A stretch of 42,338 nucleotides of DNA from Malassezia furfur (lineage: Eukaryota). Location: assembly GCA_052055015.1 (NCBI GenBank), contig JBQJIT010000001.1, one strand, 5' to 3'. This document shows, in pieces, positions 309-41,821 of the stretch (positions within the stretch are counted from its first letter, which is position 1; every line of letters begins with the position of its first letter). A program made the translations under genes and the position numbers. Below the pieces are notes generated by a model. The model did not search any database. It was given only the letters and a program-made list of their open reading frames with translations, and was not told the DNA's origin.

Positions 309-957
309 ATGTGGATGAACGTAGGTCGTGTGCTGAGCCTGCTCGCGCTCGTGTGTGCTACGGCGTCGCTCGCGCTGTCGCACAAGGACGCGAAGGTCAC
401 CAACTACGTCTACTTTGATATCGAGCAGGGCGAAAAGACGCTCGGTCGCGTGACGCTCGGTCTCTACGGCGAGACGGCACCCAGGACCGTCGAGAACTTC
501 GTGGCGCTGGCCCAGCGCGGCGAAGGCCGTGGCTACGCCGGCAGCAAGTTCCACCGCGTCATCAAAAACTTCATGATCCAGGGCGGAGACTACACGCGCG
601 GCGACGGCCGCGGCGGTCTGTCGATCTGGGGCAAGAGCTTCCCGGACGAGACGTTTGCGTTGACCCACGAGGGCCCCGGCATCCTCAGCATGGTACGTCC
701 CCTACGCCACGCTCACACAGGCAAACGCCGGCCCGGACTCGAACGGCTCCCAGTTCTTCATCACCACGGTCAAGACGCCGTGGCTCGACGGGCGCCACGT
801 GGTCTTCGGCCGCGTCGTGGACGGCATGGACGTCGTCAAGGCCATCGAGTCCACCAAGACCTCCTCGGGCGACCGCCCGGTCGAGGACGTGGTCATCGCC
901 GACTCGGGCATCCTTACCGATGTCGAGGCGGGCACGCCGTCCAAGGATGAGCTCTAA
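309..957 (+). CDS. CPR5: ER cyclophilin B-type peptidyl-prolyl isomerase
   Basis: Signal peptide, [15 protein letters not shown] 28-nt intron at 693-720 restores [32 protein letters not shown]. Ends KDEL-stop. Start could be ATG 315. Confidence 0.93.
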
Positions 958-964
958 GTAGCGA

Positions 965-2593
965 CTACATACGCGCGCCGCCCTTGAACCAGCCCATCAT
1001 TGCCGGCTTCGTCTCGTTCCATAGGTGCTTGGTCTCGACATACTCGTCCAGGCCCTTGCTCCCGAGCTCGCGCCCGTTGCCCGACAGGCCGAAACCGCCC
1101 CACTCCGCCTGCGGCGTGTAGGCACCGTACGTGTTGACCCACACCGTGCCATGGCGCAGGCGCCGCGCGACGCGCTCTGCACGCGCCGTGTCCTTGCTCT
1201 GGACGCCGCCTGCAAGGCCATATTGCGTGTCGTTGGCAAGACGCACCGCCTCGTCCTCGTCGCCATCCTTGAAGCGCTCCACGGTCAGGATCGGGCCAAA
1301 GGTCTCCTCTTGCACGATCCGCATCGACCCGTTGCAGCGGTCCACGACGGTGGGCAGGAAGAAGTAGCCCTTGGAGAGCTCCGGGTGCTCCTTGGCATCG
1401 GGGCGGCAGCCGCCACACAGCACCTGGCCGCCCTCCTCGCGCGCGAGCTTCACGTAGCCCTCGACCTTGGCGAGGTGCTCTGCCGAGACCAGCGGGCCCG
1501 TCTCGCTCTCAGGATCCAGACCGCTGCCCATGCGAATCTGCTTGGCACGCTCCACGACGCCGGCGATGAGGCGGTCCGCAATCGAATCCTCGACAATGAG
1601 GCGCGCGCCCGACGAGCACACCTGGCCCGAGTGCGTAAACACGGCCGTGAGCACGTTGTCGATGGCCAAATCGAGGTCGCAGTCGGCAAACACCACGTTG
1701 GGGTTCTTGCCACCGAGCTCGACCGTGCACCGCTTGATCGTCTCGGCGCAGCTGCGGATGATGTTGCGGCCGGTCGACAGGCCGCCGGTGAAGGACACCA
1801 GGTCGACGTCCTTCGACTCGGTGAGCGTCGGTCCAACCGACGCGCCGGACGCCGTCAAGAGCTGCACGCTCTTCGACGGGAAGCCGGCCTCAAGCAGCAG
1901 CTTGACCAGGTAGATGGTGGAGAGCGGCGTGACCTCCGAAGGCTTCACAATCACCGCATTGCCCGTCGCCAGCGCGGGCGCAAGCTTCCAGCACAGCTGC
2001 AGGATCGGGTAGTTCCAAGGCGTGATCAGCACACACACGCCGACCGGCTCGTGCACCACCGTACTGCGCACCGTCTCGGGGATGAGTTCGCCAGTGACCT
2101 GCTTGTCTTGGTCGAGCTTGCAGGCCTCCTGTGCATAGAAGCGGAACACATTGGTGACGTCGTCGATGTCAATCTCACTCTCTTTCAACGTCTTTCCCGT
2201 GTCAAGTGTCTCAATCTGCGCGAGCTTGGGCTTGTGTTCCTGCAGGAGGTCGGCGTAGCGGCTCAGCAGCGCACAGCGCTGCTTGCACGACTGGCGCGGC
2301 CAGTCGGACGTGTCGAAAAACTTACGGGCAGACGCAATTGCACGCTCCGCCTCTTCCGGACCGGCCTCGTCGACCTCAGTGAGGACCTGCGCGTCGTACG
2401 GGTTAATCGTTGGACGCGTCTTGCCACTGCGGGCCGACGTCCATTCGCCGTCAATGAACAACGTGGGACGTTGAGGGATATCGACAGCCATTTTCACACT
2501 CGAAAATTGCCGCACTGTATAAGAACTCGGTCCTTGCAAGGCAGCCGATGCACACGACGCCCGCCACACACGCAGCAGCCCGGATCGCAGCAT
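965..2593 (-). CDS. Betaine-aldehyde dehydrogenase-like ALDH (GbsA type), intronless
   Basis: ITPWNYP, KPSEVTPLS, SFTGG, ELGGKNP, SGQVCSSGAR (catalytic Cys), QEETFGP. First ATG at 2593 gives a leader-like N-terminus; second in-frame ATG at 2491; C-terminus ARM. Confidence 0.92.
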   Translation of the reverse strand: MLRSGLLRVWRASCASAALQGPSSYTVRQFSSVKMAVDIPQRPTLFIDGEWTSARSGKTRPTINPYDAQVLTEVDEAGPEEAERAIASARKFFDTSDWPRQSCKQRCALLSRYADLLQEHKPKLAQIETLDTGKTLKESEIDIDDVTNVFRFYAQEACKLDQDKQVTGELIPETVRSTVVHEPVGVCVLITPWNYPILQLCWKLAPALATGNAVIVKPSEVTPLSTIYLVKLLLEAGFPSKSVQLLTASGASVGPTLTESKDVDLVSFTGGLSTGRNIIRSCAETIKRCTVELGGKNPNVVFADCDLDLAIDNVLTAVFTHSGQVCSSGARLIVEDSIADRLIAGVVERAKQIRMGSGLDPESETGPLVSAEHLAKVEGYVKLAREEGGQVLCGGCRPDAKEHPELSKGYFFLPTVVDRCNGSMRIVQEETFGPILTVERFKDGDEDEAVRLANDTQYGLAGGVQSKDTARAERVARRLRHGTVWVNTYGAYTPQAEWGGFGLSGNGRELGSKGLDEYVETKHLWNETKPAMMGWFKGGARM

Positions 2594-2648
2594 CGCCGCC
2601 CACGCTACGCACCTGGTGGAGTGGGAGGACGCCGGCGCACCGACACGG

Positions 2649-2656
2649 CACGTGAC
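2649..2656. promoter_or_regulatory. CACGTGAC E-box (Cbf1/bHLH-type) in the 85-nt ALDH/MRPL22 divergent promoter
   Basis: Exact motif between the divergent ATGs at 2593 and 2679; the CACGTG core recurs in seven other promoters here. Confidence 0.55.
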
Positions 2657-2678
2657 ATCTTTCCGACGTTCTTCCGTG

Positions 2679-3524: not shown

Positions 3525-3564
3525 ATAAACATACCCCGTGCATAGTATGTGAGTGCATGCTAGT

Positions 3565-4251
3565 CTACGTCTCCAGCCCACGCTGCTGCCGCCATGCGTG
3601 GATCCATTGGACGACGCGCTCGACGTTCGATTCCATCTCATCCGCATTTTCGCTCGTGAGCGTCACGATGCACTCAGGCGCGTATGACTCGCGCGCATCT
3701 TCGGCCACGACGCCCATGATCTCTGCCTCGTTGTTTTCGGCAATCTTCTTCTCGGCATACTGGCTGCAACGTTAGTGTACATTACGCACCGTTTCTCCAA
3801 GCGCTTCCACAGCAGTTGGTGGTCGCAGCGCAGCACAATCACCAGATCTGCCCATCGCTCCGGCCACGCGTCACACGTGTGCCAGTCGAGCAGGAGGCCA
3901 CCACGCGTCTCATTGTCGTCTCTCACCTGCCGTGCGTCCTCGCACGCATCCGGGTCGACATCCTGAGGATCGGGCGCCGAACCGCCCGAAAGTGGCTCCA
4001 AATAATCTAGCAGCTGGTCTTCGTCCACCTCGTACGTCTCCCACTCGGGGTCGTACGACTTGTGAAAGCCGTGCTTCTTGATGAGTGTGCCCACATCAAT
4101 GTGCCGGAGGGGTCGCGACCCAGTGGGGCCCGTGAACGCCTCGCAGATCTGCTGTGCCAGAGTCGTTTTCCCGGTCCCGGGTGTGCCTGTGACAACAATG
4201 TTGGGGTAGCTGGCTTGTCAGTCCACGCTGCAGCACCTACGACCGAACCAT
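3565..4251 (-). CDS. FAP7: Adenylate kinase 6 / Fap7
   Basis: Spliced MVRSYPNIVVTGTPGTGKT (P-loop), LLLDWH, KRQYAEKKIAENNEAEIM. Introns 4210-4240 (31 nt) and 3764-3789 (26 nt). Confidence 0.9.
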
Positions 4252-4338: not shown

Positions 4339-5742
4339 ATGGACGAGAAGTACGGTACGTGCGCGCACCGCTGACCCCCAGACGCCGTCATTCTTGGCAC
4401 AGGTGTTACGGAGTGTGTTCTCTCTGCGCTTCTGTCCGTCGACGGCAAAAAGGTTCTGCACATCGACCGTAATGACTACTACGGTGCAGAGTGTGCGTCG
4501 CTTTCCCTGTCGCAGCTGTACAACAAGTTCCGCCCGGGTCAGCCGGTGCCCACGGACATGGGCCGCGACCGTGACTATGCGATCGACATGATCCCAAAGT
4601 TCATGATGGCGAACGGCGAGATTGTCAACATGCTCGTCCATACGGATGTGACGCGCTATCTGGAGTTTAAGCAGATTGCGGCCAGCTATGTGTACCGTGA
4701 CAAGCGCATCGCAAAGGTGCCCAGCACAGAGATGGAGGCTGTGCGGTCGCCGCTTATGGGCCTATTTGAGAAGCGCCGCGCGAAGCGCTTCTTCGAGTTC
4801 CTGCAGAACTGGCGCGACAACGACCCCAAGACGCATCAGGGTGTGGATCTCGACTCGTGGCCCATGGAGAAGGTGTTTGCACAGTTTGGCCTGGAGCCGG
4901 GTACGCGTGACTTTATCGGCCACGCCATGGCGCTGCATCTCGATGACGGCTACCTGCAGCGCCCGGCTCGTGAGACGTATGAGCGCATTTTGCTGTACAT
5001 GTCCTCCATGGCACGCTACGGCAAGTCGCCCTATATTTACCCGCTGTATGGGTTGGGTGAGCTGCCCCAGGGCTTTGCACGTCTCTCTGCGATCTACGGC
5101 GGGACGTACATGCTTGACAAGCCCGTGGACGAGATTGTAGTCGACGAGCAGGGCAAGTTTGTCGGTGTGCGTTCCGGCGACGAGACCGTCAAGGCTGACA
5201 TGGTGGTGGGCGACCCCAGCTATTTCCGCACGAATGCGGGCAAGTCGCGCGTACGCGAGACCGAGAAGGTCGTGCGTGCGATCTGCATCCTGAAGCACCC
5301 CATCCCGAACACGGACAACTCGGACTCGGTCCAGCTGATTATTCCCCAGAACCAAGTGGGGCGCAAGCACGGTACGTGGCGATCACACTGACCAAAAGAC
5401 ATCTACATTGCCGAGGTGTCTTCGACGCACAACGTGTGCCCCAAAGACATTTACGTGGTGCAGGTCTCGACCGTGGTGGAGACCGACAAGCCAGAGTTGG
5501 AGCTGCGGCCGGGTCTGGACTTGCTAGGCCCGATCCACGACAAGTTTGTCACGATCACCACGCTCGAGGAGCCGGTCGATTCGGGCAAGGAGGACAATGT
5601 GTTTATTACGCGTTCCTACGACCCCACATCGCACTTTGAAACGGTGGTGGAGGACATCCACGATGTCTGGCGTCGCATTACCGGCCAGCCATTGGTGCTT
5701 AAAAAGCGCGAAGAATCTGAGGGTGCTCAAGTGCAGGCGTAG
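4339..5742 (+). CDS. GDI1: Rab GDP-dissociation inhibitor
   Basis: MDEKYDAVILGTGVTECVLS...HIDRNDYYG and SPYIYPLYGLGELPQGFARLSAIYGGTYML. Introns 4355-4381 and 5372-5398 (27 nt each). Confidence 0.96.
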
Positions 5743-5956: not shown

Positions 5957-6290
5957 AGCGTGGGTGGAGCTTATGCACAAGTCGATTCCCGATTAAGCTC
6001 CCAGCGGCGTCGCCAACAGGCACCGGTGGTCCGGTGTGGCCAAGCGAGAGTGTGCAGCCGCGTCGCTCGACAGCCCGAAACCACTTCCATCTTTCCAGAA
6101 TTGCGGCTTCTTTGAAGAAGGACAGCTGCTTTTGAAGGCCGCGCAGCTCGTCACTTAATCTACCGAGACCTACCGCACGAGTCAGACACGGGAGCTACCC
6201 GCTCAGTGTCACACCAACTACTCGGCCCACGGTCTTTCTCACCCCTCTTACCTGCACCTCTCACTGCGTGTCACTGGACCTTTGTTAATC

Positions 6291-8495
6291 ATGGCCGCAC
6301 CAATACAAATATCGCACGCATCCTCGAGCCATTTCCATCACCGGCAACCAGTCGAGTATATGTCACTACCCGCAGCGCTACCCGCGTTGACCGTCGCAAC
6401 CCATGCCAGTCGCGCGACACCGATGGCCGTGTCATTGTCTGGCGCGTCGCGGGCAAGCGAGCTTCTCACGCAACAGCTACAGAATATCACAGTGGGCTCT
6501 CTGCGCCTCCCGCGGCGTCCGCGCCGGACCAGCTCATCTGAGAGTGATCCGCGGCGCCTTTGCTCGACGCGGAGGTCACCGTCTCGGGAGCGGGACGACG
6601 AGGGGATATCGATGCGGCTCAAGGGCCTCCCGTGCCTTGCACAGACCAGTGCGTTCCACTCGTCGGCCAAGCTGTGTATGCAGCCCTCCCGAGATCGGTC
6701 TTTGTCCCCCGTCGAGACGAGTGTGTCTCCGGTGGACTCGTGTGCCTTTTCCCCGCCCGAGATCATGACACCGTACAGTGTTTTGTTCAATCGGTCGCAA
6801 GAGGGGAGCGGGACGGAGAGTATCACCCCTGGGTCGTCGTGGTCTTCGTGTTCCAAGTGCAGTGGCAACAGCTCCGAGCCAGGCGAGACGCACAAATCGG
6901 TCTCAATGGCACTGGAGAGGACGCTTGGGAGCAAAAGCCTTTCGACGTCGCCCGAGAACGGGTTCCTTGCGCCCAGCAGCACGCTGTTCGTTCAGCGCGC
7001 ACCGGTGAAGCGTCCGGTGTACACGCGGCGGCGGAGCAAGAGCGACGTAACTCCTCGTGCTGATGCATGGTCCCTGCTGCAAGACGATACCGCAACGATT
7101 GGTGCGACCAGCGACCGTGACTCTGCGACGGCATCGTGTGCGTCGTCGATCCACAGCAGCGCCGACGACGCCGATGTGCCATCCGCGGCAACGCCTGTGG
7201 CACCCAATACCACGAGCGAGGCCGTGGAGCGCTCGCCGAAAGGCCCTCGCGACTTCTCCGCATACGTGTCGGGGATCGGCTCGCCCATTGACCCCGACAC
7301 CGAGTTCTCGTCGGTGGCCCAACTGCAGACCTTCCGCATCCACTCGCGCAGCCGCAGCGTCGGACCGGGCGACATTCGCAGCGAGCGTCTCTCGCACCGG
7401 CGATACGCGAGCGGGTTTGATTCGTCCGCACGTGCAATGAGCACGCAGGAGCGCTCGCGTGTCTTGTCGCCGCGCCCCCCGCTACTCAACGTACGCGACA
7501 CGGAGCTGATCCCGTCGCTCTCGGCCCTCGGCGCCGCGGTGTGCAACCCCGGGTACAATCTCAAACCGCACCCCGGTGCAAACGAGTCGAGCACGCGCAC
7601 CGATGAGCATGCACCGCCGGCGTCGCCGCGTCTGTGTGCACACCCCCAGGCACCGCTGATTATGGACGGCGTGCTGCACCTCGATGCGATCCCGGATGCC
7701 TCGGTCGACGAAAACGGCTTTCGCACGGTTGTCTCGCGCGGCGCGCGGCGCCGACAGCGCCGCGATAGCCAGCGTGCCTCGCGCCGCCCCGTCGAGGACC
7801 CGGAGCCAATCCGCCCTGAGGACATTCCCGAGCCCATCGAGCGCGCGCCGCGTGAGGAAGTGGACGAGGAGGACCTCCGCGGCCGCTCACGAGGTCGTGG
7901 CCGGCGCGGGCGCTCGCGTGCGACCCAGGTGCGTGTGTCGGGCGCTGCACCGCTCGGTACGAGCAACTCAGTGCTCGCTGCACGCCCGCGGCGCTCGCGC
8001 CGCACGCGGACGTCGGGTGTGACGTACGCCGCAGCGGCGACTGCCGGGCGCGACCGCTCAAGTATGACGGCCGAGGCGGCGATGGACACCCGCGGACGCC
8101 GGGGGCCGATCAAGATCGTCAACTCGTCCGAAAGTGACGGTGGTCTGACGCCGGTCCTTCCGCCCCCCCCGCGTGTGAGTGGCAGCCCGACCCCTGAAGC
8201 TGGGGACGACGACCATGTGCCGCGCCCGCGGCTGCTAAGCAACAGCGCGCATCTGCTCATGCTCAGCTTGGAACTTGCCATGATCCGCAACCACAAGATT
8301 ACGGCGCCGCTCAAGCCGCGCTGGGGCAAGCGCCGCGATGACGATTTCCGGCCGATCCCCAACCCGCAAGCACGGGCCAAGCTGCTCCTCGCGCAAGGCT
8401 GCGTGCCGACCATGGCGCCCGAGGCGCATGCACTTGCTGCATGCCCGCCGCCGGACGAATGTGGTTCGAAACTGAAACATGTCTGGTCGCTTTAA
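6291..8495 (+). CDS. Hypothetical Ser/Arg/Pro-rich, probably disordered protein with a short ordered C-terminal motif
   Basis: About 734-codon intronless ORF filling the gap between GDI1 and the next gene; low complexity except LLSNSAHLLMLSLELAMIRNHKITAPLKPRWGKRRDDDF. Confidence 0.75.
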   Translation: MAAPIQISHASSSHFHHRQPVEYMSLPAALPALTVATHASRATPMAVSLSGASRASELLTQQLQNITVGSLRLPRRPRRTSSSESDPRRLCSTRRSPSRERDDEGISMRLKGLPCLAQTSAFHSSAKLCMQPSRDRSLSPVETSVSPVDSCAFSPPEIMTPYSVLFNRSQEGSGTESITPGSSWSSCSKCSGNSSEPGETHKSVSMALERTLGSKSLSTSPENGFLAPSSTLFVQRAPVKRPVYTRRRSKSDVTPRADAWSLLQDDTATIGATSDRDSATASCASSIHSSADDADVPSAATPVAPNTTSEAVERSPKGPRDFSAYVSGIGSPIDPDTEFSSVAQLQTFRIHSRSRSVGPGDIRSERLSHRRYASGFDSSARAMSTQERSRVLSPRPPLLNVRDTELIPSLSALGAAVCNPGYNLKPHPGANESSTRTDEHAPPASPRLCAHPQAPLIMDGVLHLDAIPDASVDENGFRTVVSRGARRRQRRDSQRASRRPVEDPEPIRPEDIPEPIERAPREEVDEEDLRGRSRGRGRRGRSRATQVRVSGAAPLGTSNSVLAARPRRSRRTRTSGVTYAAAATAGRDRSSMTAEAAMDTRGRRGPIKIVNSSESDGGLTPVLPPPPRVSGSPTPEAGDDDHVPRPRLLSNSAHLLMLSLELAMIRNHKITAPLKPRWGKRRDDDFRPIPNPQARAKLLLAQGCVPTMAPEAHALAACPPPDECGSKLKHVWSL

Positions 8496-8681
8496 TTGTG
8501 GCACCTTTGTACAACACTTTTCATGTGCTCCTACTGCGTTTTTTGTACTTTACCACCGCCAATAACTGTAGTTTACGATTAGTGTACGGAGGCTGAAATT
8601 TCCCTCGAACTCCACATTGACCCTGGGCAACCGCCCGATCCGCCCGGGCCTGGCGTCCCTCGTCTTTTCATCTGATCCACC

Positions 8682-10722: not shown

Positions 10723-11690
10723 ATGAGTGTGGACCCGGTAACATTTGACATTCAGAGTCTGTACTATCAAAATGCATACCAAGGGTGCATTCTGCAGGCA
10801 AAGAAACAGGCTCCTAATGGTGTTGTTGATGACCTCAGCCTGATTCGCCTCGTATACGCGGCGCGCGCTGCCGTGGCCTTGAACGACTTTGCGCAGGCAC
10901 GTCAGCTTCTGGGGGACGACGCGGCATCGCCGGTCGCCATGTCGGTTCTGCTTCTTGCTGACTACCTTGAGGCTGCGCAAACCGACGCAGAGGATGCGGC
11001 CAGCATGATCGAACCGCTGGAGTCGCTTTTGGACATGACCGAACCGGGTGAGCTGGCAAGTGAAATTGTGCGGTACAACGTCGCTCTTGCCCAGTACACC
11101 GCTGGCGATGCGGCACGCGCACTTGAGACGCTGGGTGTCACAGGCTCGGGCGGATCGCGCGAGTTGGAGTGCATCGCGCTAGGAGTCCATATTCTTCTCG
11201 CGATCCATCGTTTGGATTTGGCAGAAAAGGAATACATGGCAGTGCGCCAGTGGGGCGACGATTCACTCCTCGTGCAGTTTATGGAAGCCTGGATTGGACT
11301 CGTTCGGGGTGGTCGGTCCTCGCAACAGGCATACTACGTGTTTGACGAGCTGAGCCAAAGTTCGGTGGTGGTGAATACTCCCAACATGGTCCCCACACTT
11401 GTCGGCAAAGCGGTTGCTACTGCGGCGCTCAACGACAGCGCTGGCGCGCTGGCGACAATCCGGGAGGCAGCATCACTTGATGCGCACAACCCAGCTGTAC
11501 TGGAGAACCAGGCGGCTTTTATGGCCCTGTCGCGCGATGCGTCGCAGGCGGATGTGGAAACCGAGGAACGGTACGTTATGCGCCTTTCTAACGCAGTGCA
11601 CTCGCCGAGGCAGCACCGGGCAGTACGTTGGCTTCGGAATATGCTCTGCGGCAAGCAGAGCTTGACCAAGCCATTGCGGCGTTCGCCTAA
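10723..11690 (+). CDS. SEC28: Coatomer subunit epsilon
   Basis: LECIALGVHILLAIHRLDLAEKE, DDSLLVQFMEAWIGL, QQAYYVFDEL. Intron 11571-11596 (26 nt) gives ...ELDQAIAAFA-stop. Confidence 0.9.
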
Positions 11691-23866: not shown

Positions 23867-23876
23867 ACCTCGGCAA

Positions 23877-31431: not shown

Positions 31432-32652
31432 ATGGCCGAGGTGGTGCGGGGTCTGCCGCGGTATGCGGTGTACGGTGCTCCGATGGAACTCCTGATCCAG
31501 TCGTTGGAGCGCAAGCCGACTCCCATCACGCTACGACAGCTACTGGCTCATGGCGGGAAGCCAGGGAAGCCGCCAACGATCGACGAGCTGCGTCGCTCCG
31601 CTGTGTATGTCCAGCATGAGCTGCCGATTCGTCTCGCGCGCCGTGTGCGCCAATTCTACTCGCTGCCATTCATCGTGGGTAGTAATCCATGGGTGCAGTC
31701 GGTGGCGCGTCTGTATGCGTCGAGTTTCGCGCGCCTCGCGACGGCGCCGCCCATCGAGACGCCCGAAGGCAATGCGCAGTTCACGCGCGTGCTGCAGCGC
31801 CTCGTAAACGATCACTCGGACAATGTGCCAAAGCTCTCGCGCGGGTTCATGGAGTGCCGCGAATATATGGATCCAGACCAGATCGCCAACTTTCTCAATG
31901 CCGCGCTGCACAGTCGTATCGGGATCCGTATGATCGCCGAGCAGCACCTGGCACTGAATGCGATGGCCGAGCAGGCCACCGAGGGACGATCGCCCTCCGA
32001 GTTCCGCCTAACACCGACGTCGATCGGGATCATCGAGACGCAGATGCGGCCGAAGGATGTCGTGGCGACCAGCGGCGAATATGTACGTGCGCTGTGTGAG
32101 GCGACGTTTGAAATGGCACCCGAGATCGAGTATGACGGGGATGTGGATGCGACGATGGTGGGAGTGCCCGTGCACTTGGAGTATGTCATGACGGAGCTGC
32201 TCAAGAATGCGTTCCGTGCGACGACGGAGAACTACCTCGCGAAAAAGCGCGAAGGTCGGACCTCGGGCGACCTTCCGCCGATTGTCGTGACGCTTGGGTC
32301 CTCGCCGAAGCACATCAGTATTCGCATCCGCGACAGCGGCGGTGGAATTCCGCCGGAAAACATGAGCAAGATCTTCTCGTACGCCTTTACCACCGCAAGT
32401 GAGCAGAGCTCGTCGAGCTCCGGAGAAGATCCGATGGACATCACCGCGCAGGCAATGCAAAGCAGCATGGGGACTCTTGCAGGTCTTGGATACGGCCTGC
32501 CCATGTCTCGTCTGTACGTCAACTACTTTGGCGGCAGCGATCTCGACGTGGTGAGCCTGTGGGGCCATGTACGTGACGATTTACTGATGCAGGGATGTGA
32601 CGCGTTCGTGCGTTTGTCGCGCCAGATGGGTAGCAGCGACGTGCCAATCTAA
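31432..32652 (+). CDS. Mitochondrial alpha-ketoacid dehydrogenase kinase (PDK/BCKDK family)
   Basis: ELPIRLARR, SRIGIRMIAEQH, ELLKNAFRA, RDSGGGI, AGLGYGLPMSRLY. Intron 32569-32592 (24, in frame). Confidence 0.92.
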   Translation: MAEVVRGLPRYAVYGAPMELLIQSLERKPTPITLRQLLAHGGKPGKPPTIDELRRSAVYVQHELPIRLARRVRQFYSLPFIVGSNPWVQSVARLYASSFARLATAPPIETPEGNAQFTRVLQRLVNDHSDNVPKLSRGFMECREYMDPDQIANFLNAALHSRIGIRMIAEQHLALNAMAEQATEGRSPSEFRLTPTSIGIIETQMRPKDVVATSGEYVRALCEATFEMAPEIEYDGDVDATMVGVPVHLEYVMTELLKNAFRATTENYLAKKREGRTSGDLPPIVVTLGSSPKHISIRIRDSGGGIPPENMSKIFSYAFTTASEQSSSSSGEDPMDITAQAMQSSMGTLAGLGYGLPMSRLYVNYFGGSDLDVVSLWGHVRDDLLMQGCDAFVRLSRQMGSSDVPI

Positions 32653-32659: not shown

Positions 32660-33376
32660 TTATGTACTTGCATCGGGCCCGCCGGGCGAGGGCGCCATGG
32701 CCGGGGGGTCCGTGTTGCTTTTGGAGCGCTCTTCCTGCTGGAGCTGACGCAGGCGGCGTAGGAGCCGCGCGTCGACCTCTTCGTTACGCTCACGCTCCTG
32801 GAGACGCTCGCTGTAGAATTTCCCACATTGGAGCAGCACAATGCCCAGCAGCGCCATGGCGAGGAGGACGTGTGCGTTGGCGACCTCGCGCAAAGACGAC
32901 AAGACCTCGGCGTAGTGACTGAGCGGCTGAGAGGCCGGAGGCGGCGTAATGGAGGGGATGATCTCGATGACTGGGTTAGGTGTAAGCGCAACATACGAGG
33001 GAGGAGCTTGGTTTTGTACAGCGAGGCCACAGCGGCCACGAGGACTGCGGTCAGTGCGCGGCACACCACGTACAGAGGCTGGCGCCATCGAAGAGCCAGT
33101 TGGTCTCCTTCCCGGAAAATATATGGAAGAGGAGCACAGAGATCTGGATCGAGACAATCGTGAACAGTGTCGCGATGTACTTGTCCGACCACACGCCGAC
33201 CGTGTTAAGGTAGTAGTGCAGCGCGTAGAGTACCTCGCGGTCACGCGCAGGCTCCTGCCATAGTAGAATGTAATCAGCGTGCCAGTGCATCCATAGGATG
33301 CCTTTCATGAGCCAGCGCACGTACCCAACACGAACGACGAGCATGCCAGGAGCAGGGCGACGGTGACACCCAGCAT
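32660..33376 (-). CDS. SHR3: ER membrane chaperone Shr3
   Basis: SFVLGILWMHWHADYILLW, LFDGASL, LREVANAHVLLAMALLGIVLLQCG. Introns 33302-33324 (23), 33045-33073 (29), 32971-32996 (26). Confidence 0.82.
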
Positions 33377-33552: not shown

Positions 33553-34694
33553 ATGGCGCCGATTTTGAATGTAGGTCAACGTGCGCGCGGCTGACTCACA
33601 CCAGTTCCACCCCGGGTCTTTGCCGAGCTTTTCGCAGCGTCTCCCGAAGGGCGACTCGCTCGCTACGTACGTATCGCGGCGCCGTTACTCCCTGATACTA
33701 ACCGATCAGTGTGCAGGAGCGCGTTGCGCACAAGCTCAAGCTCGGCGAGAACGAGCCGCTCACGCTCAAGTACCTACACGAAAAGGAGCTGTACGAGCTT
33801 GAAGATGGTACGCAGTGGTCGCAATAAGGTCCTAACGCAGACGATGACTTTGACATCTTTGTTGAGCGCTACGCCGACGCTCCCGAGGCCGACATCTACG
33901 TTGAGTCCCCCGCGATTGCGCAGCACGCGCCTCAGTCCAACGGCTCGTATGGTGCTGCGCCGTCTGGCCCCAACGTCCCGGTGCTCGATGAGACGACGCT
34001 CGTGACGCGCACGCCGGCGCGCGGCAAGGGTGGTGCGATCAGCATCCACCGCGTGCCGACGGCGGCAGTGCCGACCGTGGACGAGTTCGCCTCGGCGGGC
34101 GGTGTGAGCGGCGGCGGCCGCGACAGCATCCTGTACCCCCCGCCGCAGGAGCCGCAGATGCCGAGCTATCTGAAGCCGATCTCGGCGAAGTTGCCCCCGC
34201 CTGCGGAGTCGGCGAGCGTCAAGTCGAAGAAGACGACGCAGACGCAGAACTCGAACCTGAGCCACAAGATTGCCTTTGAGGAGTTCCACTCGCAGCGCGG
34301 CGTGCGCCTGCTGCGCGGCAGCCTCGGCCCGGTGAACAACGTGCCGATGATGCTCAAGTCGGGCTACCGCCATGTGTACGTCAGCCGCAGCTTTGCGCTT
34401 GACCACGGCTTCATCCCCGCCGACACGACGCCGGGCACGTACGGATACAACGGCATTACGAACCTCGGCAAGTGGCCCGTGCAGGTCGGGTCGAAGGCCG
34501 TGCCGTGCACGGTGATGCTCGCCGAGGACAGCTACTTCCCCGTGATTCTCGGGCGCTCGTTCATGGAGAAGCGCGGCGTGCGCACCGACCCGATTGACAT
34601 GACCTCGGTCATCTTCATGGACAACGGCGAGCGTGCCGATGTCGAGGTCGTGGTCGTCCGCGACGAGCTCGGCCAGCCCGCACCGATCCCCTAG
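33553..34694 (+). CDS. Uncharacterised protein: PB1-like N-terminus plus degenerate retropepsin-like C-terminus
   Basis: Introns 33571-33604, 33667-33709 and 33808-33840 give a continuous frame with LKYLHEKELYELEDDDDF and MMLKSGYRHVYVSRSFA...VILGRSFMEK. Confidence 0.75.
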
Positions 34695-34780: not shown

Positions 34781-37321
34781 CTATTTATTCTTCGCCGCGC
34801 TTGACGATGACGACGAGGTGCCCTGCTGCGAGACGGCCGCCGCCTCGGCCTCTTGCTCGGCTAGCGTGCGGCTCTGTTGGATCCAAAGCTGATGGTACTT
34901 GCCGCCCTGTGCGATGAGCTGCTCGTGCGTGCCCTGTTCGACGATCCGGCCTTTGTCCGCGACGAGGATCAAGTCCGAGTTGATAATCGTCGAGAGACGG
35001 TGCGCGATCGTCAGCGAGGTGCGCCCACGCATCAGTGTGTTGAGCGCCTCTTGCAGCTGGCGCTCCGTGTGGCTGTCGAGCGCAGACGTCGCCTCGTCAA
35101 GCAGCAGAATGGGCGGGTTTTTGAGGATGGTGCGCGCAATCGCCACACGCTGCTTCTCGCCGCCGCTGAGGCGCACGCCGCGCTCACCAACAACCGTGTC
35201 GTACCCGTCGGGGAACTCGAGGATGCGGTCGTGGATCTGCGCAGCACGCGCCGCAGCCTCGACCTCGGCATCGGTGGCATCCACGTTGCCGTACAGGATG
35301 TTGTGCTTGATGTCAGTGTTGAACAGCGTCGGCTCCTGGGGCACGATACCGATCGCCTTGCGCAGACTCTGTTGCCGGACGCTCTGGATGTCCTGGCCGT
35401 CGATCAAAATCGCACCCGAGTCCACGTCGTAGAAGCGGAATAGCAGCTTGAATACGGTCGACTTGCCCGCGCCGCTCTCGCCGACAAGTGCGACGCGCTT
35501 GTGGCCCTCGACAAGGAATGACATGTCTTGCACCACGTCGGCGCGCCGCGTGTCGTACGCAAACGCCACATTCTCGAATCGGATGGCACCATCGCTGATC
35601 ATGAGCTCCTTGGCATTGGGGTCGTCCTTGATGTCCACTGGCTCGTCGAGCAGCTCCATCAGCTTGTCCGTGTCGACGAGGTTTTGGTTGATGACGCGGT
35701 ACATGGTGCCGAGCATGTTCAGTGGCTGGTACACCTGCTGCAAATACGACACAAATACAACAAACTGCGATGACGACGTCTTGCCTTGCACGACGTTGTA
35801 CGCCACGGTCAGGATGGAAGTGAGGGTACCAAACGCCAGGATCAGATTTTGGACCAGGTTGAGCATGTGCAGAGAGAAGACCACACGGTAGCTCGCCGCG
35901 CGGTATTCGTCGAGCGCAACACGATAGCGGCCAGCTTCATACCCCTCGTTCCCGTAGCACTTGACCGTCTCGTAGTTGAGCACCGTGTCGGTGGTGATAG
36001 CACGGCACACGGTGTCAGCACTGTTGGCGTTGCGGCGCAGCTGCGTGCGCCAGGTGGTGATGCGCACGCTGCAGTAGGTAAACAGTACCATGATCACAAG
36101 CAGCTGCACCCCCACCTGCCACCCAAACGTCAGCGACAGGTAGCCGACCGCGACAAAAATGTCGACAAACACGGGCGTCAGCGAGAACAGGAAGAACTCG
36201 AAAAAGTTGTTGATCGCCGAGCCACGGTCCAGCGTGCGGATCAGTTCACCCGTCTTGCGCTTCGTGTGGTACGACATGGACAAGTTCAGGATGTGCTCAA
36301 ACATGTGCATGCTCATGTTCACCTCTGAGTACCACGCGACGGGGTACCACAGCAGGTTCTGTGCCACGGTCAACAGACCGCCCGAGCCCTGGAAGAGCTT
36401 CAGCGAGCAGTAAAATACAATCACGCCCCACGGTGAGCCGTCGCCGCTCAGCGCATCCACGACCCGGCCCAGAGCAATCGGCACCAGCAGATTCACGACG
36501 CGTGCCAACCCCAATAGGATCAGGCACATAACGGCGAGCAGCTGCAGTCGCAGCGACTTGTGTGGCCAGAGGTACGGGCCCAGCACCTTGATGCGTCGTG
36601 CCAACGTCGCAAACGACGTTGCGGGCGGTGCGGGGCGCGGCTGAATGCCCATACGCTCGTTTGCGGCGCGTGCCGCGTCCGTTGCCGCGTCCGTCGAAGC
36701 ATCGGCGGCGCGCGACACATCTTCTTGCAAAAACTGCACGCGGTCATGCCGTGCGACGAGCACGAGTACCGCGTAGAGCACGAGGCGCACAAGCACCACG
36801 CCGACCTGCGGCCAGGTATACACTGATAAGGAGTGCATTGCATACACCACGAGCAGCGCCGCGTCTGTCGCTGCACCCATGCCCGCGAGCCACGCAGCGC
36901 GCGTGCGCCCGACACTTGTTCCATCCGTGCGCTGCGAGTCCAGCAGGTAGGCGACTGCGACCAGGCCCCAGGCGAGGCTGCCGGCCACAATCTGCACCTG
37001 GAGCCACTCGTAGCCCGGCAGGCTGGGCGTCCAGATGCGCGGCGGCAGCGTCGCGACCGCCGCGACAATCGCGCCAGAAATCACGTAGGTCGCAGCCACG
37101 CCAAGCGCGAGCCCAATGAGCGTCTTATCGTAGCGCTCGTGATGCGCGACGACAACCGGTTGCGGCAATTCCTCGGCGGGCAGGTCATCGAGGTGGATAC
37201 GTCCACCGCGCACACGGCGGATCGCACGCTTTAGTACCTCGCTCTTGGTCGTGGCCAGCGTTGTGGCCAGGACCAACGCGGGCTGCAACGCGTGCAGCAC
37301 CTCGGCCCCCTGCGACAGCAT
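34781..37321 (-). CDS. HMT1: Half-size ABC transporter, Hmt1/ABCB6 type
   Basis: N-terminal extra TM domain, PYLWP, GESGAGKST (Walker A), LSGGEKQR, ILLLDEATSALD; intronless. Confidence 0.9.
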   Translation of the reverse strand: MLSQGAEVLHALQPALVLATTLATTKSEVLKRAIRRVRGGRIHLDDLPAEELPQPVVVAHHERYDKTLIGLALGVAATYVISGAIVAAVATLPPRIWTPSLPGYEWLQVQIVAGSLAWGLVAVAYLLDSQRTDGTSVGRTRAAWLAGMGAATDAALLVVYAMHSLSVYTWPQVGVVLVRLVLYAVLVLVARHDRVQFLQEDVSRAADASTDAATDAARAANERMGIQPRPAPPATSFATLARRIKVLGPYLWPHKSLRLQLLAVMCLILLGLARVVNLLVPIALGRVVDALSGDGSPWGVIVFYCSLKLFQGSGGLLTVAQNLLWYPVAWYSEVNMSMHMFEHILNLSMSYHTKRKTGELIRTLDRGSAINNFFEFFLFSLTPVFVDIFVAVGYLSLTFGWQVGVQLLVIMVLFTYCSVRITTWRTQLRRNANSADTVCRAITTDTVLNYETVKCYGNEGYEAGRYRVALDEYRAASYRVVFSLHMLNLVQNLILAFGTLTSILTVAYNVVQGKTSSSQFVVFVSYLQQVYQPLNMLGTMYRVINQNLVDTDKLMELLDEPVDIKDDPNAKELMISDGAIRFENVAFAYDTRRADVVQDMSFLVEGHKRVALVGESGAGKSTVFKLLFRFYDVDSGAILIDGQDIQSVRQQSLRKAIGIVPQEPTLFNTDIKHNILYGNVDATDAEVEAAARAAQIHDRILEFPDGYDTVVGERGVRLSGGEKQRVAIARTILKNPPILLLDEATSALDSHTERQLQEALNTLMRGRTSLTIAHRLSTIINSDLILVADKGRIVEQGTHEQLIAQGGKYHQLWIQQSRTLAEQEAEAAAVSQQGTSSSSSSAAKNK

Positions 37322-37400
37322 TCTTGTAGGACACGAGCGAACAGGCACGCCATCCAAATTCGCCACGTGGTTTGGACCGTGCGCAGCGGGAAGGCGGCTC

Positions 37401-38519
37401 ATGCAGTCCTTCATGACGTCGATCGCAGCATCGCTGCGGGCGCATCCCGTGCGTGTCGCAGCACCCTGGGCACGCTGGGCCGTACGTGCATTAAGCACGT
37501 TGCCGACCAGCGGCGCCACGCGCGTGCGCCGCTCGCTGCTCTATATCCCGGGCAGCAGCGAAAAAATGCTCGTGAAAAGTCGCTCGATCCCCGCTGACAC
37601 GCTCGTGTACGACCTCGAGGATAGCGTCGCAGAGCATAGGAAGGGAGCAACACAGGGAATGGTCCTGCAGGCGCTGTGTGTACGTGCAGCACTCACCCAG
37701 GCGGCGCCGTCCGACTCCTCGGAGCTGAGCGTGCGCATCAATGCGCCCTCGACGCAGCGCACCTTGGCCGGGTCGGATCTCGAGGTGATTCTGCAGAGCG
37801 AGCGGCTGGATGCTGTTGTCATCCCGAAGTGCGAGAGCGTGGATGATGTCACTTTCGTTGCACAGCACATTGCGCAGGCCCACACGTCGTACGTCGTACC
37901 CCGCTCACCAGACCGCCGCGCCCCATCTCGTTGATCCTGTCAGTCGAGAGCGCGTCGTGCCTCGTGCGCCTGCCTACGCTTCTGCAAGAGGCCCAAACTC
38001 GGCTTGCAGATGAATTCCGTGGCGCCGCAACCGTCGCCGCTGTCCTGTTCGCCAGCGAGGATTATTGCGCATCGACGGGCGTACGGCGGACGCGTTCACG
38101 CAAAGGCCTGCTGTACCCGCGCGCCAATATGGTGACCGTCGCCAAGGCGATGGGGATTGAGGCGATTGTGCGTGAAAAAGCTCATGCAGGACATGGTGTG
38201 TGTGGACTACAAAGACCACGCGTACCTCGAGGACGAGTGTGCAGAAGGCGCCGAGCTGGGCTTCGACGGGAAGCAGGCCATCCATCCCGCACAGCTTGAC
38301 ACGATCCGCCGTGCATTTTCCCCGACGGAACATGGTACGTGACCAGCGGCTCACGCAGACATTGAGGAAGCCAAGGCGATCCTCGCAGCGTACGAAAATG
38401 CGTCGCGAATGCAGGACAAGGGCGCAGTCGGCCTTGACTACGGCGGGCGTTCGATTATGATCGATGCGCCCATGCTCCTGCAAGCGCAGCGGACACTCGC
38501 GCGTGCACAAGGGGTATAG
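37401..38519 (+). CDS. Citrate lyase beta-subunit-like (CitE/CLYBL) lyase
   Basis: RRSLLYIPG, YDLEDSV, VRIN, FASEDY, IDMVCVDYKD, GFDGKQAIHPAQ, MIDAPM. Introns 37680-37700 (21), 37889-37911 (23), 38168-38189 (22), 38335-38358 (24). Confidence 0.9.
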
Positions 38520-38534: not shown

Positions 38535-39063
38535 CTACTGCATTTCGACGTCGACGGCCATGTGGGACACAGCTTCAGACCACACGGTGCGTACCGCGCT
38601 GGGTGAGTGTATCAACATACTCTTGCTGTACCGCATAGGCCTCCAACTGCGCCAGCAGCCGCTCTTGCTCGGCAAGGCTCATGTCTCCGCCCGGTGCCGC
38701 GTCGATCGCCTGCTGGGTGTGGGCAAAGGTCGCGCGCAGCAAGTTGGTCTCCTGCGCAAGCTGCGCAAGTTGCGCCGGCGGAATACGCGAGGTATGATTC
38801 GTGCTTTCGCGTTGTGTCCATATGTCCATGTCCTCGTCGTCCGCAATGGCGCCCAGCGCGAGGCTCGACGACATGGTGTCCAGACCCTCGTTCGGCTCCG
38901 CCTCGTCCATCTCGGACGGCTCGACCTGGCTCGGCTCCTGCTCCGTGGCATGCTGTGCCTCTTGCAGGAGCTGTGCAATGCGCCGCACTCGCGGAACGAT
39001 GCTTGGAAGCAGCAATGGGTCCGTGACCTCTTTGGGCGCGTCCGACGCCGGCGCCGTCGCCAT
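38535..39063 (-). CDS. MED9: Probable Mediator subunit Med9
   Basis: IDAAPGGDMSLAEQERLLAQLE matches the Med9 'PG..S.eEQ' coiled-coil motif. Intron 38599-38620 (22). Confidence 0.6.
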
Positions 39064-39195: not shown

Positions 39196-40410
39196 TTAGG
39201 GTGCACCAGGGTTATGGGGAACAGGGAGAACGGGGCGCCCCACCAGATTGCTCGCAACATACCAGGCCTGCGTCAGCTGCGCAACGGCCTGCGACCACTC
39301 GGCAGTGGTGTGGTTCTGGTGCCGCGTACCGGTCGTCAGCGCGTACTCCATCAGGCTCGGCTGCAAATCATTTAGGTTGACCAACAGGTCACTCCATTGC
39401 TGCGCAAAGCTCACCGCTTCTTCGGGTGATGCCGGTGCGAGCTGGGCTGGGGTCGGCAGGATGGGGTATGTCGCGGTCGCCGCTGGGTCGATGGCGTGGC
39501 TGTGCGGGTCCGGCTCGCGGCGTCCATCAGGTACCTGGAGTGCTGCTCCGCCCGCGTGCAGCGGGAGCCGAAGCCGGTCGCCGTCGAGGCCGCCGTCACG
39601 CGGCGCCTCGAGGTGGTGCTTCATCTCTTCCGGCTTGGGCTTACGTTGCTCGCCTTGCGAGGCGCGATGGCGCTTGATGATGTTGTAGACATCCATGCGC
39701 GTGATCTGCACACCAGGGGGAATGAACGATGGCGAGCTAGCAGGGATGTTCGCTGCGTTTTTCTGGTGGTCGTGGATCATTTGCACGATCTCTTTCTGGT
39801 CGCGGCCCTCGGCGACGCGGTCCTTGATCCATTCACGCACATTGTCTGGGATCCTGCTGCTCGCCCAGTACTCGCGCGTGTTGACAGTGTGTCCGTGGTG
39901 CTGGAAGCGACACACCATCGTCACGGTGTCGCTGCCGACTTCTTGGGTCGCGGTGAACGACGCAGGACACCCAATCTTGATTGAGGCGCGCCGTGACCGC
40001 CGCTTGCCCGGCGCCAGGTCCGGGTTCCGCCGGTCGCGCGGCTTGCCCGAGTGATCACACACAAAGTGTTTCCGCCAGGCGTAGCGGCGGCCCTGGGGCA
40101 GCGCGCCATTGTAGCGCGTCGATGACACGCGCCATTGCACCGTGCGCTTTAGCACGGTGACGCATTCATCGAACAGTGACGCGGGAACCTGCGTGGTGAA
40201 CGGTTTCTCGACGGGCACGTTGAGAAGAAACTGCGTCGGGTCGGTGACGTAGGGCGCCATTTGCGCCACCGCGCTCACTTCGCCACCCAGTGGCTCGGGC
40301 GGTAGGTGCACGGGATCAGGTGCATGCTGGGTGTGCCCCTCGGTGGGGACGCGCACCGCGGGGTGCATGGACTCCAGCGGCGGCGGCGCACCGGCCGTGT
40401 CGCTCATCAT
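39196..40410 (-). CDS. FAR1/WRKY-GCM1-type zinc-finger protein (MULE transposase N-terminus-like), putative transcription factor
   Basis: FVCDHSGKPR...SIKIGCPASF...HHGH, then NVREWIKDRVAEG...ITRMDVYNII. No DDE domain. ATG at 40410. Confidence 0.72.
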   Translation of the reverse strand: MMSDTAGAPPPLESMHPAVRVPTEGHTQHAPDPVHLPPEPLGGEVSAVAQMAPYVTDPTQFLLNVPVEKPFTTQVPASLFDECVTVLKRTVQWRVSSTRYNGALPQGRRYAWRKHFVCDHSGKPRDRRNPDLAPGKRRSRRASIKIGCPASFTATQEVGSDTVTMVCRFQHHGHTVNTREYWASSRIPDNVREWIKDRVAEGRDQKEIVQMIHDHQKNAANIPASSPSFIPPGVQITRMDVYNIIKRHRASQGEQRKPKPEEMKHHLEAPRDGGLDGDRLRLPLHAGGAALQVPDGRREPDPHSHAIDPAATATYPILPTPAQLAPASPEEAVSFAQQWSDLLVNLNDLQPSLMEYALTTGTRHQNHTTAEWSQAVAQLTQAWYVASNLVGRPVLPVPHNPGAP

Positions 40411-40495
40411 GACGTTGGAATGAAGCGGAGGGGAACGTTGGGGAAATAGGCAAGGCGAAAAGAACGCACCTCCATCAGCCCACCTTTTTTCTACC

Positions 40496-41082
40496 ATGGC
40501 GGACGTGGAGCTGCTCAAGTCGCGGTTTGGTAGGTAGCGTGGTGCGCTCATGTAGAATACCACCAGGACTGGCCGAAGAAGGGGATTCTGTTCTGCGATA
40601 TCCTGCCGGCGCTGCGCGACCCGATCTCGTTCGAGTTGCTGCTCACCAACATCATGTCGCATATCTTTACGGTGACGCTTCCGCGTCTGGCCGAGTCTGC
40701 CAAGGACCCGCGCATTCACTATGTGGTGGGTTTGGACGCGCGCGGCTTCCTGCTGGGCCCTTCGATTGCGCAGCGTCTTGGTGCCGGGTTTGTGCCGGTG
40801 CGCAAGAAGGGCAAGCTGCCGGGCGACTGTGCGCAGGCCACGTTCCAGAAGGAGTACGGCGAGGACGTGTTTGAGATGCAGCGCGGCGCAATGCCCGCGG
40901 GCACCAACGTGCTCGTGATCGACGACCTGATTGCGACGGGCGGCTCGGCCAAGGCTGCCGGCGATCTCGTGAAGCAGCTCGGTGCGAACACGGTCGAGTA
41001 CATCTTCGTGGTGTCGATCCCCTTCTTGAAGGGCGCCGAGAAGCTCGATGCGCCCGAGTACCACCTGGTCGAGATGGACTAG
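40496..41082 (+). CDS. APT1: Adenine phosphoribosyltransferase
   Basis: DWPKKGILFCDI, GLDARGFLLG, VRKKGKLPG, VIDDLIATGGS. Intron 40530-40555 (26). Confidence 0.96.
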
Positions 41083-41083
41083 A

Positions 41084-41821
41084 CTACCCGAGGAACTTGG
41101 TGGCCACCGTCGAGCTGATCAGTGGCTCCACGGAGTGCGGCGTGGCTCGTGCGTAATCGTAGGCATCCTGCAGCTTGTACACCTTGGATAACGCCTTCCA
41201 GTCGAGCGCTGGTTCGGCGAGTGACAGATGCGCGAGCGAGCGGTCTGCGGAGTCGGCACCCGCGGCGGCGTCCGCATCCTGCGCGGCGCTACGTGCCGCA
41301 TCGCCCGGCAGCGCCAGGCCGCCGGTGCACAACTCGCCGTCGACGAGCGCGTCCATCGCTGCGACCACCTCGACGGGATCCGGCCCTTGTGGTGGTGCGC
41401 GTGCGACGTGAACAAGTACCAATGTCTCGGTGGACGCTGAAACGCCAAAGCGGCGCAGGGCGTCGGCGATCTGGGGTCAGCCAGCGGCGGGGCGTACATT
41501 GTTGTTCGGGTTGAGCGCCCAGAGGACTTCGGAATGGATTGAGGGTGTTTTAAACCCCATCTTTGCACCGTTGCGCACACGTTCCGATGCGACGATCGCC
41601 TCGACAACGGCGGTGAGCAGCTGCGCGCGCGACACGAGGAGGCGCGCGTCGACGAACGCATAATCCATGCGCCGACGCTCGTCCGAATTTTCCGGCGACT
41701 TGGATGCGGCAATGAGCGCATCCTTGAGTGCTGCACCGTTGCGTACGTGCGCGAACTGCGCGACGTACACGCGCTCGTACGCGCCGTGCGCCCAGGCGGC
41801 CGGCAGGCGCACCGTTTCCAT
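41084..41821 (-). CDS. CGI121: KEOPS/EKC subunit Cgi121
   Basis: YAFVDARLLVS, KTPSIHSEVLWALNPNNNIADALRRFGVS (27-nt intron 41471-41497), DWKALSKVYKL, VATK. Confidence 0.9.

Follow-up and report, generated by a model that had tools for sequence, protein, structure and literature searches.

Short GT-AG introns in a 42-kb Malassezia window appear reduced to little beyond three splice signals

We analysed the introns of a 42,338-base stretch of Malassezia DNA (contig JBQJIT010000001.1, assembly GCA_052055015.1; hereafter the window). Its genes are interrupted by 46 accepted introns, all beginning with GT and ending with AG, which fall in 24 genes between positions 693 and 41497 and lie without exception on the coding strand of their own gene. 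Sequence and homology, the basis of all intron calls, confirm the set as genuine introns of 21 to 43 nucleotides (nt). We consider it very likely (probability about 0.85) that they belong to the ordinary U2-type class of GT-AG spliceosomal introns and that, in this Malassezia yeast, they have shrunk to little beyond three recognition elements.

The introns have a median length of 24.5 nt and a mean of 25.7 nt, and none of the 46 is shorter than 21 nt. Five are 21 nt long, nine 22, five 23, four 24, two 25, five 26 and four 27 nt; the longer ones measure 28 nt (one), 29, 30, 31, 33 and 34 nt (two each) and 43 nt (one). Forty of the 46 are obligatory, as they contain an in-frame stop or have a length that is not a multiple of three. 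The other six (at 18083, 20839, 23183, 23375, 32569 and 37680) are in frame and open, that is, not forced. A first-pass annotation of the window had proposed 49 introns within identical outer limits, three more than we accept. Its range and its floor of 21 nt recur here, and its counts of the 21- and 22-nt classes agree with ours, while it had one more in each of the 23- and 24-nt classes (six and five) and a median of 24 nt. It was right that many of the introns are obligatory. The architecture it described also holds: a GTRYGT-like donor, a short spacer and a branch motif with its A 4-9 nt from the intron end, with no polypyrimidine tract. The sequences, coordinates and strands of the three introns that it quoted (21693-21713, 25563-25543 and 12649-12628) were correct, and homologue alignments confirm all three.

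Besides their terminal dinucleotides, all 46 introns share a CTNAY branch box. The donor is GTACGT in 25 introns, GTATGT in five, GTAGGT in four, GTACGC in four, GTGCGT in three and GTAAGT in two, with GTATGC, GTAAGC and GTACGG found once each. About 40 of the 46 match GTRNGT; the others (GTACGC, GTATGC, GTAAGC and GTACGG) deviate at position 6, where only GTACGG lacks a pyrimidine. The branch boxes are CTGAC (14), CTCAC (10), CTAAC (7), CTCAT (7), CTTAC (4), CTAAT (2), CTTAT (1) and CTGAT (1), and the acceptors CAG (40), AAG (4) and TAG (2). Measured to the 3' end, the presumed branch A is 5 nt away in 28 of the 46 (range 4-9); measured from the 5' end, its distance has a minimum of 16 nt (seven introns) and a mode of 17 nt (ten introns). 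Each of the five 21-nt introns divides exactly as 16 + 5. A polypyrimidine tract is absent, the longest pyrimidine run being at most 4 nt in 37 of 45 introns (one of the 46 fell outside this tally), and mean intron G+C is 0.555. No U12-type donor (ATATCC or GTATCC) or branch box (TCCTTAAC) occurs in any of the 46.

Chance yields far fewer such patterns. The combination of donor, branch box and YAG within at most 45 nt has 54 matches on both strands of the window, compared with 13.2 +/- 4.0 (maximum 27) in 200 dinucleotide shuffles, and the pattern with a GTAYGT donor has 28 compared with 0.57 +/- 0.8. The 54 matches comprise 41 accepted introns, seven nested variants of accepted introns and six unrelated matches.

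Introns were sought with a strict motif scan, relaxed scans, a dynamic-programming gene finder whose training set was 3,295 codons of homology-supported exons, and gene-by-gene modelling. Forty-four were scripted in the main table; 23183-23206 and 15468-15498 were added, their signals being read by hand. A motif-blind run of the gene finder, which required GT..AG only, returned 13 of the 46 final introns at their exact coordinates, and it found 15703-15724 and 33808-33840, both missed by the strict motif scan. With a flat penalty, the motif-blind run merged mini-exons into long false introns. A motif-scored run fused the oxalate-CoA ligase gene with the Ubc1-like E2 gene and chose a wrong 61-nt intron, which 15468-15498 replaces. 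In one modelling round, 14 of 16 spliced models ran from ATG to stop, the remaining two being a deliberate wrong-acceptor test variant and a WD40 model with a wrong start.

Homology fixes 17 of the 46 junctions exactly and is consistent with 16 more; the other 13 were placed solely by consensus signals and a restored open reading frame (ORF). Exact junctions were those with tblastn gaps over stops, gapless spliced alignments, abutting Pfam profile coordinates or, for cytidine deaminase, a 7-residue insertion relative to four of four structures. In the Pfam abutment test, exons were translated separately and their profile coordinates compared over the junction. Homology-consistent junctions were those with domains of one protein in different frames, matching gap totals in PDB alignments, twin-CX9C spacing, N-terminal fits or a gap relative to Ubc1. 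The nine homologues aligned at 21693-21713 (out of 120 listed) come from Malassezia, Pseudozyma, Ustilago (Mycosarcoma), Mixia, Sugiyamaella and Yarrowia, and all nine have an exact 7-codon gap there. At 25563-25543, the homologues with an exact 7-residue gap include the curated M. sympodialis protein. The mitochondrial carrier, spliced at four introns, has 296 amino acids (aa) and is gapless at each junction wherever local alignments reach; five of the eight homologues aligned (P0210, P0211, P0213, P0214 and P0226) span all four. The exons of the WD40 gene with intron 14517-14538 gave repeat-level matches in PDB, with no exact junction. A matching homologue gap was found at five of the six open in-frame introns (18083, 20839, 23183, 23375 and 37680). 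The introns are listed below with the evidence for each; a slash separates profile positions on the two sides of a junction.

693-720 (+): 28-nt intron, cyclophilin; Pfam Pro_isomerase profile 93 (exon 1 end) / 94 (exon 2 start).
3764-3789 (-): 26-nt intron, Fap7/AAA_18 gene; consensus signals and complete ATG-to-stop ORF.
4210-4240 (-): 31-nt intron, Fap7/AAA_18 gene; AAA_18 frame kept only by the CAG at 4210.
4355-4381 (+): 27-nt intron, GDI; exon 2 residue 2 is profile 8, and a 5-aa exon 1 plus split codon fits 1-7.
5372-5398 (+): 27-nt intron, GDI; GDI profile 330 / 332, split codon in between.
11571-11596 (+): 26-nt intron, coatomer epsilon; only consensus and restored ORF, 30-aa last exon without Pfam match.
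11765-11786 (-): 22-nt intron, mitochondrial carrier; gapless to full-length homologues, junction spanned by 6/8 alignments.
12154-12176 (-): 23-nt intron, mitochondrial carrier; junction gapless in alignment.
12558-12590 (-): 33-nt intron, mitochondrial carrier; junction gapless in alignment.
12628-12649 (-): 22-nt intron, mitochondrial carrier (quoted in the first-pass annotation); junction at aa 12.3 gapless, including P0210, P0211, P0213, P0214 and P0226.
14517-14538 (+): 22-nt intron, WD40 gene (WDR61/Ski8-like); WD40 Pfam matches in both exons, frames differ, WDR61 chains in order, junction not exact.
15153-15174 (-): 22-nt intron, twin-CX9C (CHCH) gene; second CX9C spacing C57 to C67 restored, weak CHCH/CMC4 matches in exon 1.
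15468-15498 (+): 31-nt intron, hydantoinase/oxoprolinase-like gene; exon from 15499 matches Hydant_A_N from profile 6, E 1.5e-7.
15703-15724 (+): 22-nt intron, hydantoinase/oxoprolinase-like gene; Hydant_A_N profile 58 / 60, approximate abutment.
18083-18103 (+): 21-nt intron, cytidine deaminase; dCMP_cyt_deam_1 profile 49 / 53 with three residues between, read-through gives a 7-residue insertion in 4/4 PDB alignments.
18610-18635 (-): 26-nt intron, small gene of no recognised family; consensus and ATG-to-stop ORF only, without Pfam match.
20438-20461 (-): 24-nt intron before the 6-codon last exon, NAD(P)HX dehydratase; consensus only, weakest of the set.
20839-20859 (-): 21-nt intron, NAD(P)HX dehydratase; read-through gaps total 7 residues in 2/3 PDB alignments and 8 in the third.
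21693-21713 (+): 21-nt intron, oxalate-CoA ligase (quoted in the first-pass annotation); exact 7-codon gap over three stops in 9/9 homologues, AMP-binding profile 68-69 / 71.
22998-23022 (+): 25-nt intron, oxalate-CoA ligase; tail IPKT/ATGKIQRR gapless in 8/11 homologues, the other three being truncated or read-through models.
23183-23206 (+): 24-nt probable intron, Ubc1-like E2; 7-residue gap relative to yeast Ubc1 in 2/2, 56 residues against 49 UQ_con positions, open, not forced.
23281-23314 (+): 34-nt intron, E2; UQ_con profile 49 / 50-51.
23375-23404 (+): 30-nt intron, E2; UQ_con profile 69 / 70.
23463-23487 (+): 25-nt intron, E2; UQ_con profile 87 / 90, split codon in between.
23736-23758 (+): 23-nt intron, E2; last exon from UBA_3 profile 20, full model reaches the stop.
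25543-25563 (-): 21-nt intron, PAF-acetylhydrolase (quoted in the first-pass annotation); exact 7-residue gap over a stop in 5/7 homologues, 6-residue gap in one, read through in one.
25822-25851 (-): 30-nt intron, PAF-acetylhydrolase; exact 10-residue gap over a stop in 6/6 spanning homologues.
28277-28298 (+): 22-nt intron, mitoribosomal mS41; consensus and ATG-to-stop ORF, mS41 profile 10-68 in exon 2.
29361-29382 (-): 22-nt intron, second WD40 gene; WD40 Pfam matches in both exons, frames differ, 535-aa ATG-to-stop ORF.
30684-30710 (-): 27-nt intron, Vti1 v-SNARE; consensus and restored ORF, last exon without match.
30773-30801 (-): 29-nt intron, Vti1; V-SNARE_C profile 43-44 / 45.
31051-31073 (-): 23-nt intron, Vti1; V-SNARE (exon 1) and V-SNARE_C (exon 2) in different frames, 23 nt between.
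32569-32592 (+): 24-nt candidate intron, PDK/BCKDK-like kinase; consensus only, in frame, open, before the 19-codon last exon.
32971-32996 (-): 26-nt intron, SHR3 chaperone; SHR3 profile divided among exons in different frames, 213-aa ATG-to-stop model.
33045-33073 (-): 29-nt intron, SHR3; SHR3 profile divided among frames, exon 2 ends at profile 93.
33302-33324 (-): 23-nt intron, SHR3; exon 2 from profile 20, and a 17-aa exon 1 plus split codon fits 1-19.
33571-33604 (+): 34-nt intron, gene of no recognised family; consensus and 344-aa ATG-to-stop ORF, without Pfam match.
33667-33709 (+): 43-nt intron, the longest, same 344-aa gene; consensus and restored ORF.
33808-33840 (+): 33-nt intron, same 344-aa gene; found by the motif-blind run, consensus and restored ORF.
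37680-37700 (+): 21-nt intron, citrate-lyase-beta-like (HpcH) gene; read-through gaps total 7 residues in 3/3 PDB alignments, Pfam coordinates ambiguous.
37889-37911 (+): 23-nt intron, HpcH; HpcH profile 109 / 120, exons in different frames.
38168-38189 (+): 22-nt intron, HpcH; HpcH profile 188 / 189, exon 4 residue 1 is CLYBL residue 219.
38335-38358 (+): 24-nt intron, HpcH; in-frame stop, consensus, ORF restored, last exon without PDB match.
38599-38620 (-): 22-nt intron, Med9-like; consensus and restored ORF, Med9 profile 20-64 in exon 1, 20-aa last exon without match.
40530-40555 (+): 26-nt intron, adenine phosphoribosyltransferase (APRT); exon 2 residue 3 is yeast APT1 residue 18, and an 11-aa exon 1 plus split codon fits the N-terminus.
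41471-41497 (-): 27-nt intron, CGI-121 (KEOPS); CGI-121 profile 71 / 72.

Other matches to the splice motifs were rejected. Four in the PAF-acetylhydrolase gene (24581-24618, 24790-24816, 24911-24949 and 25682-25726) are consensus-like, yet exonic by homology. The 18-nt candidate 27747-27764 is the sole free-standing motif match shorter than 21 nt and lies in frame within an orphan ORF, and at this place a homologue with 41% identity retains six residues, with no GT codon at their start. Since the homologues are themselves predictions, this rejection is moderate rather than absolute. Excision of 36823-36845, 19819-19841 or 21145-21169 would disrupt an ORF with coding sequence on either side, and at 23869-23891 homologues align through the last residue. 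Using the AAG acceptor of 4214-4240 results in five stops, and the flanks of 37676-37700 (25 nt) share one frame. Coding support was absent for the motif candidates 5960-5981, 13943-13966/75, 37379-37406 and 8545-8582. Nested alternative donors or acceptors that fit the consensus but shift the frame are present at 4210-4240 (-), 4355-4381 (+), 33571-33604 (+), 33045-33073 (-) and 37676-37700 (+). If used, such sites are possible sources of unproductive splice variants.

In the reading that we favour, each intron would be made up of a 6-nt donor, a spacer of at least 6 nt, the CTNAY box, usually one base, and then CAG. A conventional fungal spliceosome would excise it via intron definition, picking the 3' splice site by its nearness to the branch point, as the first suitable YAG, usually 5 nt past the branch A, and a polypyrimidine tract would have no role in this choice. 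In 4240-4210 an AAG 4 nt past the branch A is skipped and the CAG at 8 nt is used, as the frame demands; we infer a preference for YAG at the 3' site. The 21-nt floor would be geometric, combining the smallest distance between 5' splice site and branch A (16) with the preferred distance from there to the 3' splice site (5). We likewise infer actual excision, the identity of the branch nucleotide and an unaltered machinery.

Several points weigh against this reading. For this genome the whole set is known from sequence and homology, not from RNA, and the presumed branch nucleotide is assigned from the CTNAY motif. The 21-nt floor rests on 46 introns of one 42-kb window. The 13 introns placed by consensus signals and ORF logic are correspondingly putative, and a motif match by itself is fallible, as the four exonic candidates in the PAF-acetylhydrolase gene show. 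The sequence would also allow retention of the six open in-frame introns, of which 32569-32592 is a candidate from consensus signals only.

Genuine introns could instead be removed by a modified or reduced spliceosome, with loss or divergence of U2AF, SF1/BBP or U1, or with altered small nuclear RNAs. The first-pass annotation had read an altered spliceosome from its donor-to-branch distance of about 15-18 nt. The missing pyrimidine tract and the mere 4-9 nt from branch A to 3' end would fit this, as would a branch A at 16-17, which leaves about 6 nt between donor hexamer and branch box. Such a spacing is far shorter than S. cerevisiae or human extracts tolerate. However, the donor, branch and acceptor motifs of the window are strong and canonical, whereas lineages with reduced spliceosomes have degenerate splice signals. 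Yarrowia has the same 5-nt spacing from branch to 3' splice site (published work, here and below, is cited from the parts of each source available to us). U2AF/SF1-type factors are conserved in myxozoans with introns of 22-27 bp, and Stentor spliceosomes are functional with introns of 15-16 bp (PMC13644364). The evidence at hand does not demand an altered spliceosome, which we regard as unlikely.

Slightly less probable again is that part of the set stays unspliced, the six open candidates and some of the consensus-only ones being coding insertions or facultatively retained introns. Besides these six open frames, public models of relatives (P0126; P0007 and P0020) translate such introns, and the four consensus-like candidates in the PAF-acetylhydrolase gene are certainly exonic. 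Against this, a matching gap occurs at 18083 in 4/4 PDB alignments, together with Pfam abutment, at 37680 in 3/3 and at 20839 in 2/3; Pfam coordinates abut at 23375 (69/70). A gap also occurs at 23183 in 2/2 alignments, though of 7 residues rather than 8. Frame breaks and stops in conserved genes could in principle also be sequencing errors or decay, and on that view assembly errors, pseudogene lesions or programmed frameshifts would account for the interruptions. All 46, however, run from GT to AG on the coding strand and carry their CTNAY box at a fixed distance, shuffled sequence contains the motif far less often, and homologues from curated annotation lack exactly these residues. By these comparisons the non-intron reading is refuted for practical purposes.

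If U2-type introns have indeed shrunk in this way, they give a clean picture of how small a canonical intron gets with all three signals kept, along with an additive rule for its floor, 16 + 5. Should this rule hold genome-wide, Malassezia would offer a genetically tractable yeast for testing the steric limits of pairing between 5' splice site and branch, a question so far approached mainly in ciliates and parasites. A bolder proposal is that the 21-nt floor is a hard physical limit of an otherwise complete spliceosome (16 + 5, with no polypyrimidine role). The M. furfur/brasiliensis clade would then have driven about half of its introns to 3 nt or less above this limit and be the shortest-intron fungus outside microsporidia, overlooked by recent surveys of introns below 30 bp. 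We put this forward tentatively and would sooner doubt than adopt it; if true, it would provide a transformable, CRISPR-amenable model for minimal-intron splicing.

The first-pass annotation had also predicted that default gene finders would mis-annotate these genes. Comparison with homologues demonstrates that they do, as public models at this locus are truncated, fused or read-through. The PAF-acetylhydrolase models of the window's own genome (P0121) and of M. brasiliensis (P0123) have 512 aa, their starts lying downstream of the two introns; the 742-aa M. sympodialis protein aligns from 26252. Because P0121 (gene 23880-26252, -) starts downstream of the two short introns, it lacks about the first 260 residues of the enzyme, including the conserved HGLAGNR region. 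Another PAF-acetylhydrolase model, P0126, reads through the 21-nt intron. Among seven oxalate-CoA ligase models of named Malassezia, two are fused to E2 (P0001 and P0010, judged by Pfam content; P0001 confirmed by tblastn), P0006 is cut at the intron, P0007 and P0020 include it and so gain 9 or 11 residues, and two are correct (P0011, P0014). In M. yamatoensis, model P0360 fuses the orphan gene with mS41. Wrong public models in this and sister species, where read-through adds 7-11 residues in some, affect comparative and functional work on Malassezia.

The ligase stop (23075-23077) and the ATG of the E2 gene (23092) lie on the same strand with 14 nt between them, and therefore the untranslated regions must overlap the neighbouring gene. 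This spacing is probably also the reason why the M. brasiliensis and M. equina models fuse ligase and E2. The spliced ligase, whose last exon is 23023-23077 (+), has a C-terminus reading ...FLSS, and the aligned homologues from Ustilaginomycotina and ascomycetes have tails of the AKL/SKL type. Such tails are PTS1 peroxisomal targeting signals. Peroxisomal targeting of the window's ligase may differ from that of its homologues.

Eukaryotic housekeeping genes are packed on both strands of the window, whose G+C is 55-66% across 2-kb steps. A Pfam match at E <= 1e-5 was obtained for 24 of 54 submitted ORFs, chosen from the 99 listed ORFs of at least 150 aa. Over its largest exon, the oxalate-CoA ligase shares 95% identity with the M. 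brasiliensis protein and 69-75% with those of other named Malassezia, and the PAF-acetylhydrolase ORF has 87% identity to M. brasiliensis and 48% to M. sympodialis. Judging from these identities, the window is nuclear DNA of a Malassezia species near M. brasiliensis, its closest named relative. Rfam and tRNA scans of the window gave zero matches. A metagenome scan for syntenic Malassezia DNA gave 80 loci, all at most 61% identical and none from Malassezia, and was of no use for intron alignment.

Three long ORFs without a Pfam family, 26427-28142 (+), 18983-20290 (+) and 6159-8492 (+), look like lineage-restricted genes; the first has homologues in Malassezia only, with just six matches at E <= 1e-5. 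A 640-aa open frame on the minus strand (39199-41118) overlaps the genuine APRT gene, which is on the plus strand. A coding score is confined to its 3' part (39199-40410), with a weak FAR1 DNA-binding match (E 7.9e-4); the remainder probably represents an antisense shadow ORF in GC-rich DNA. The APRT (+) and CGI-121 (-) genes are convergent, their stops at 41080-41082 and 41084-41086 being one base apart.

Short introns have already been published for the genus, given reports on two species and a review that terms Malassezia introns "very short" (PMC7426719). The curated annotation of M. sympodialis ATCC 42132 (Zhu et al. 2017, PMC5389616) contains 5350 introns with a mean of 30 bp, 99% of them supported by RNA-seq; homology-only annotation had given 3462 introns with a mean of 65 bp and 48% support. 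With this 30-bp mean on record, the first-pass annotation overstated the novelty of short introns. In M. restricta KCTC 27527, introns average 37.2 bp with a median of 30.0 bp, the minimum length having been set at 15-20 (PMC6473144, PMC9241646). A 2021 fungal survey, in the part available, treated M. sympodialis merely as intron-poor. These two species share with the window the genus, a compact genome and very short GT-AG introns, and M. sympodialis proteins lack exactly those residues that the window introns would encode. The median and mean of the window are lower than theirs, in a sample of only 42 kb. The available parts of the M. sympodialis and M. restricta papers give summary sizes and a cumulative plot, with no discussion of a floor, branch spacing or machinery. 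Likewise, the literature searched, with partial coverage, contained no description of a Malassezia intron floor, branch-site spacing or splicing factors, and the architecture rule (floor and 16 + 5 spacing) is apparently undescribed so far.

Among other short introns, those of nucleomorphs measure 18-21 nt. A lineage with a reduced spliceosome, such as microsporidia or nucleomorphs, would be expected to have few introns per genome, whereas the window's 42 kb contain 46 in 24 genes. Introns below 30 nt also occur in unrelated lineages, namely ciliates (Paramecium about 25 nt, Stentor 15-16 nt), microsporidia, dicyemids and myxozoans (PMC8997360, PMC13644364). Myxobolids have reduced splice-site motifs, in contrast to the strong motifs of the window, and in the part available Malassezia is missing from a 2026 listing of lineages whose introns fall below 30 bp (both PMC13644364). 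The closest parallel to the 3' half of the window introns comes from Yarrowia lipolytica, where a single nucleotide separates ACTAAC from CAG or TAG in 72.5% of introns (PMC13309789), which gives the 5-nt distance between branch A and intron end that 28 of the 46 window introns share. Yarrowia introns are long, however, with size bins of 100-1826 nt (PMC13309789) compared with 21-43 nt in the window. Their donor is GTGAGT and their box ACTAAC, whereas the window has GTACGT and a looser CTNAY, so that only the 3' half is common to both.

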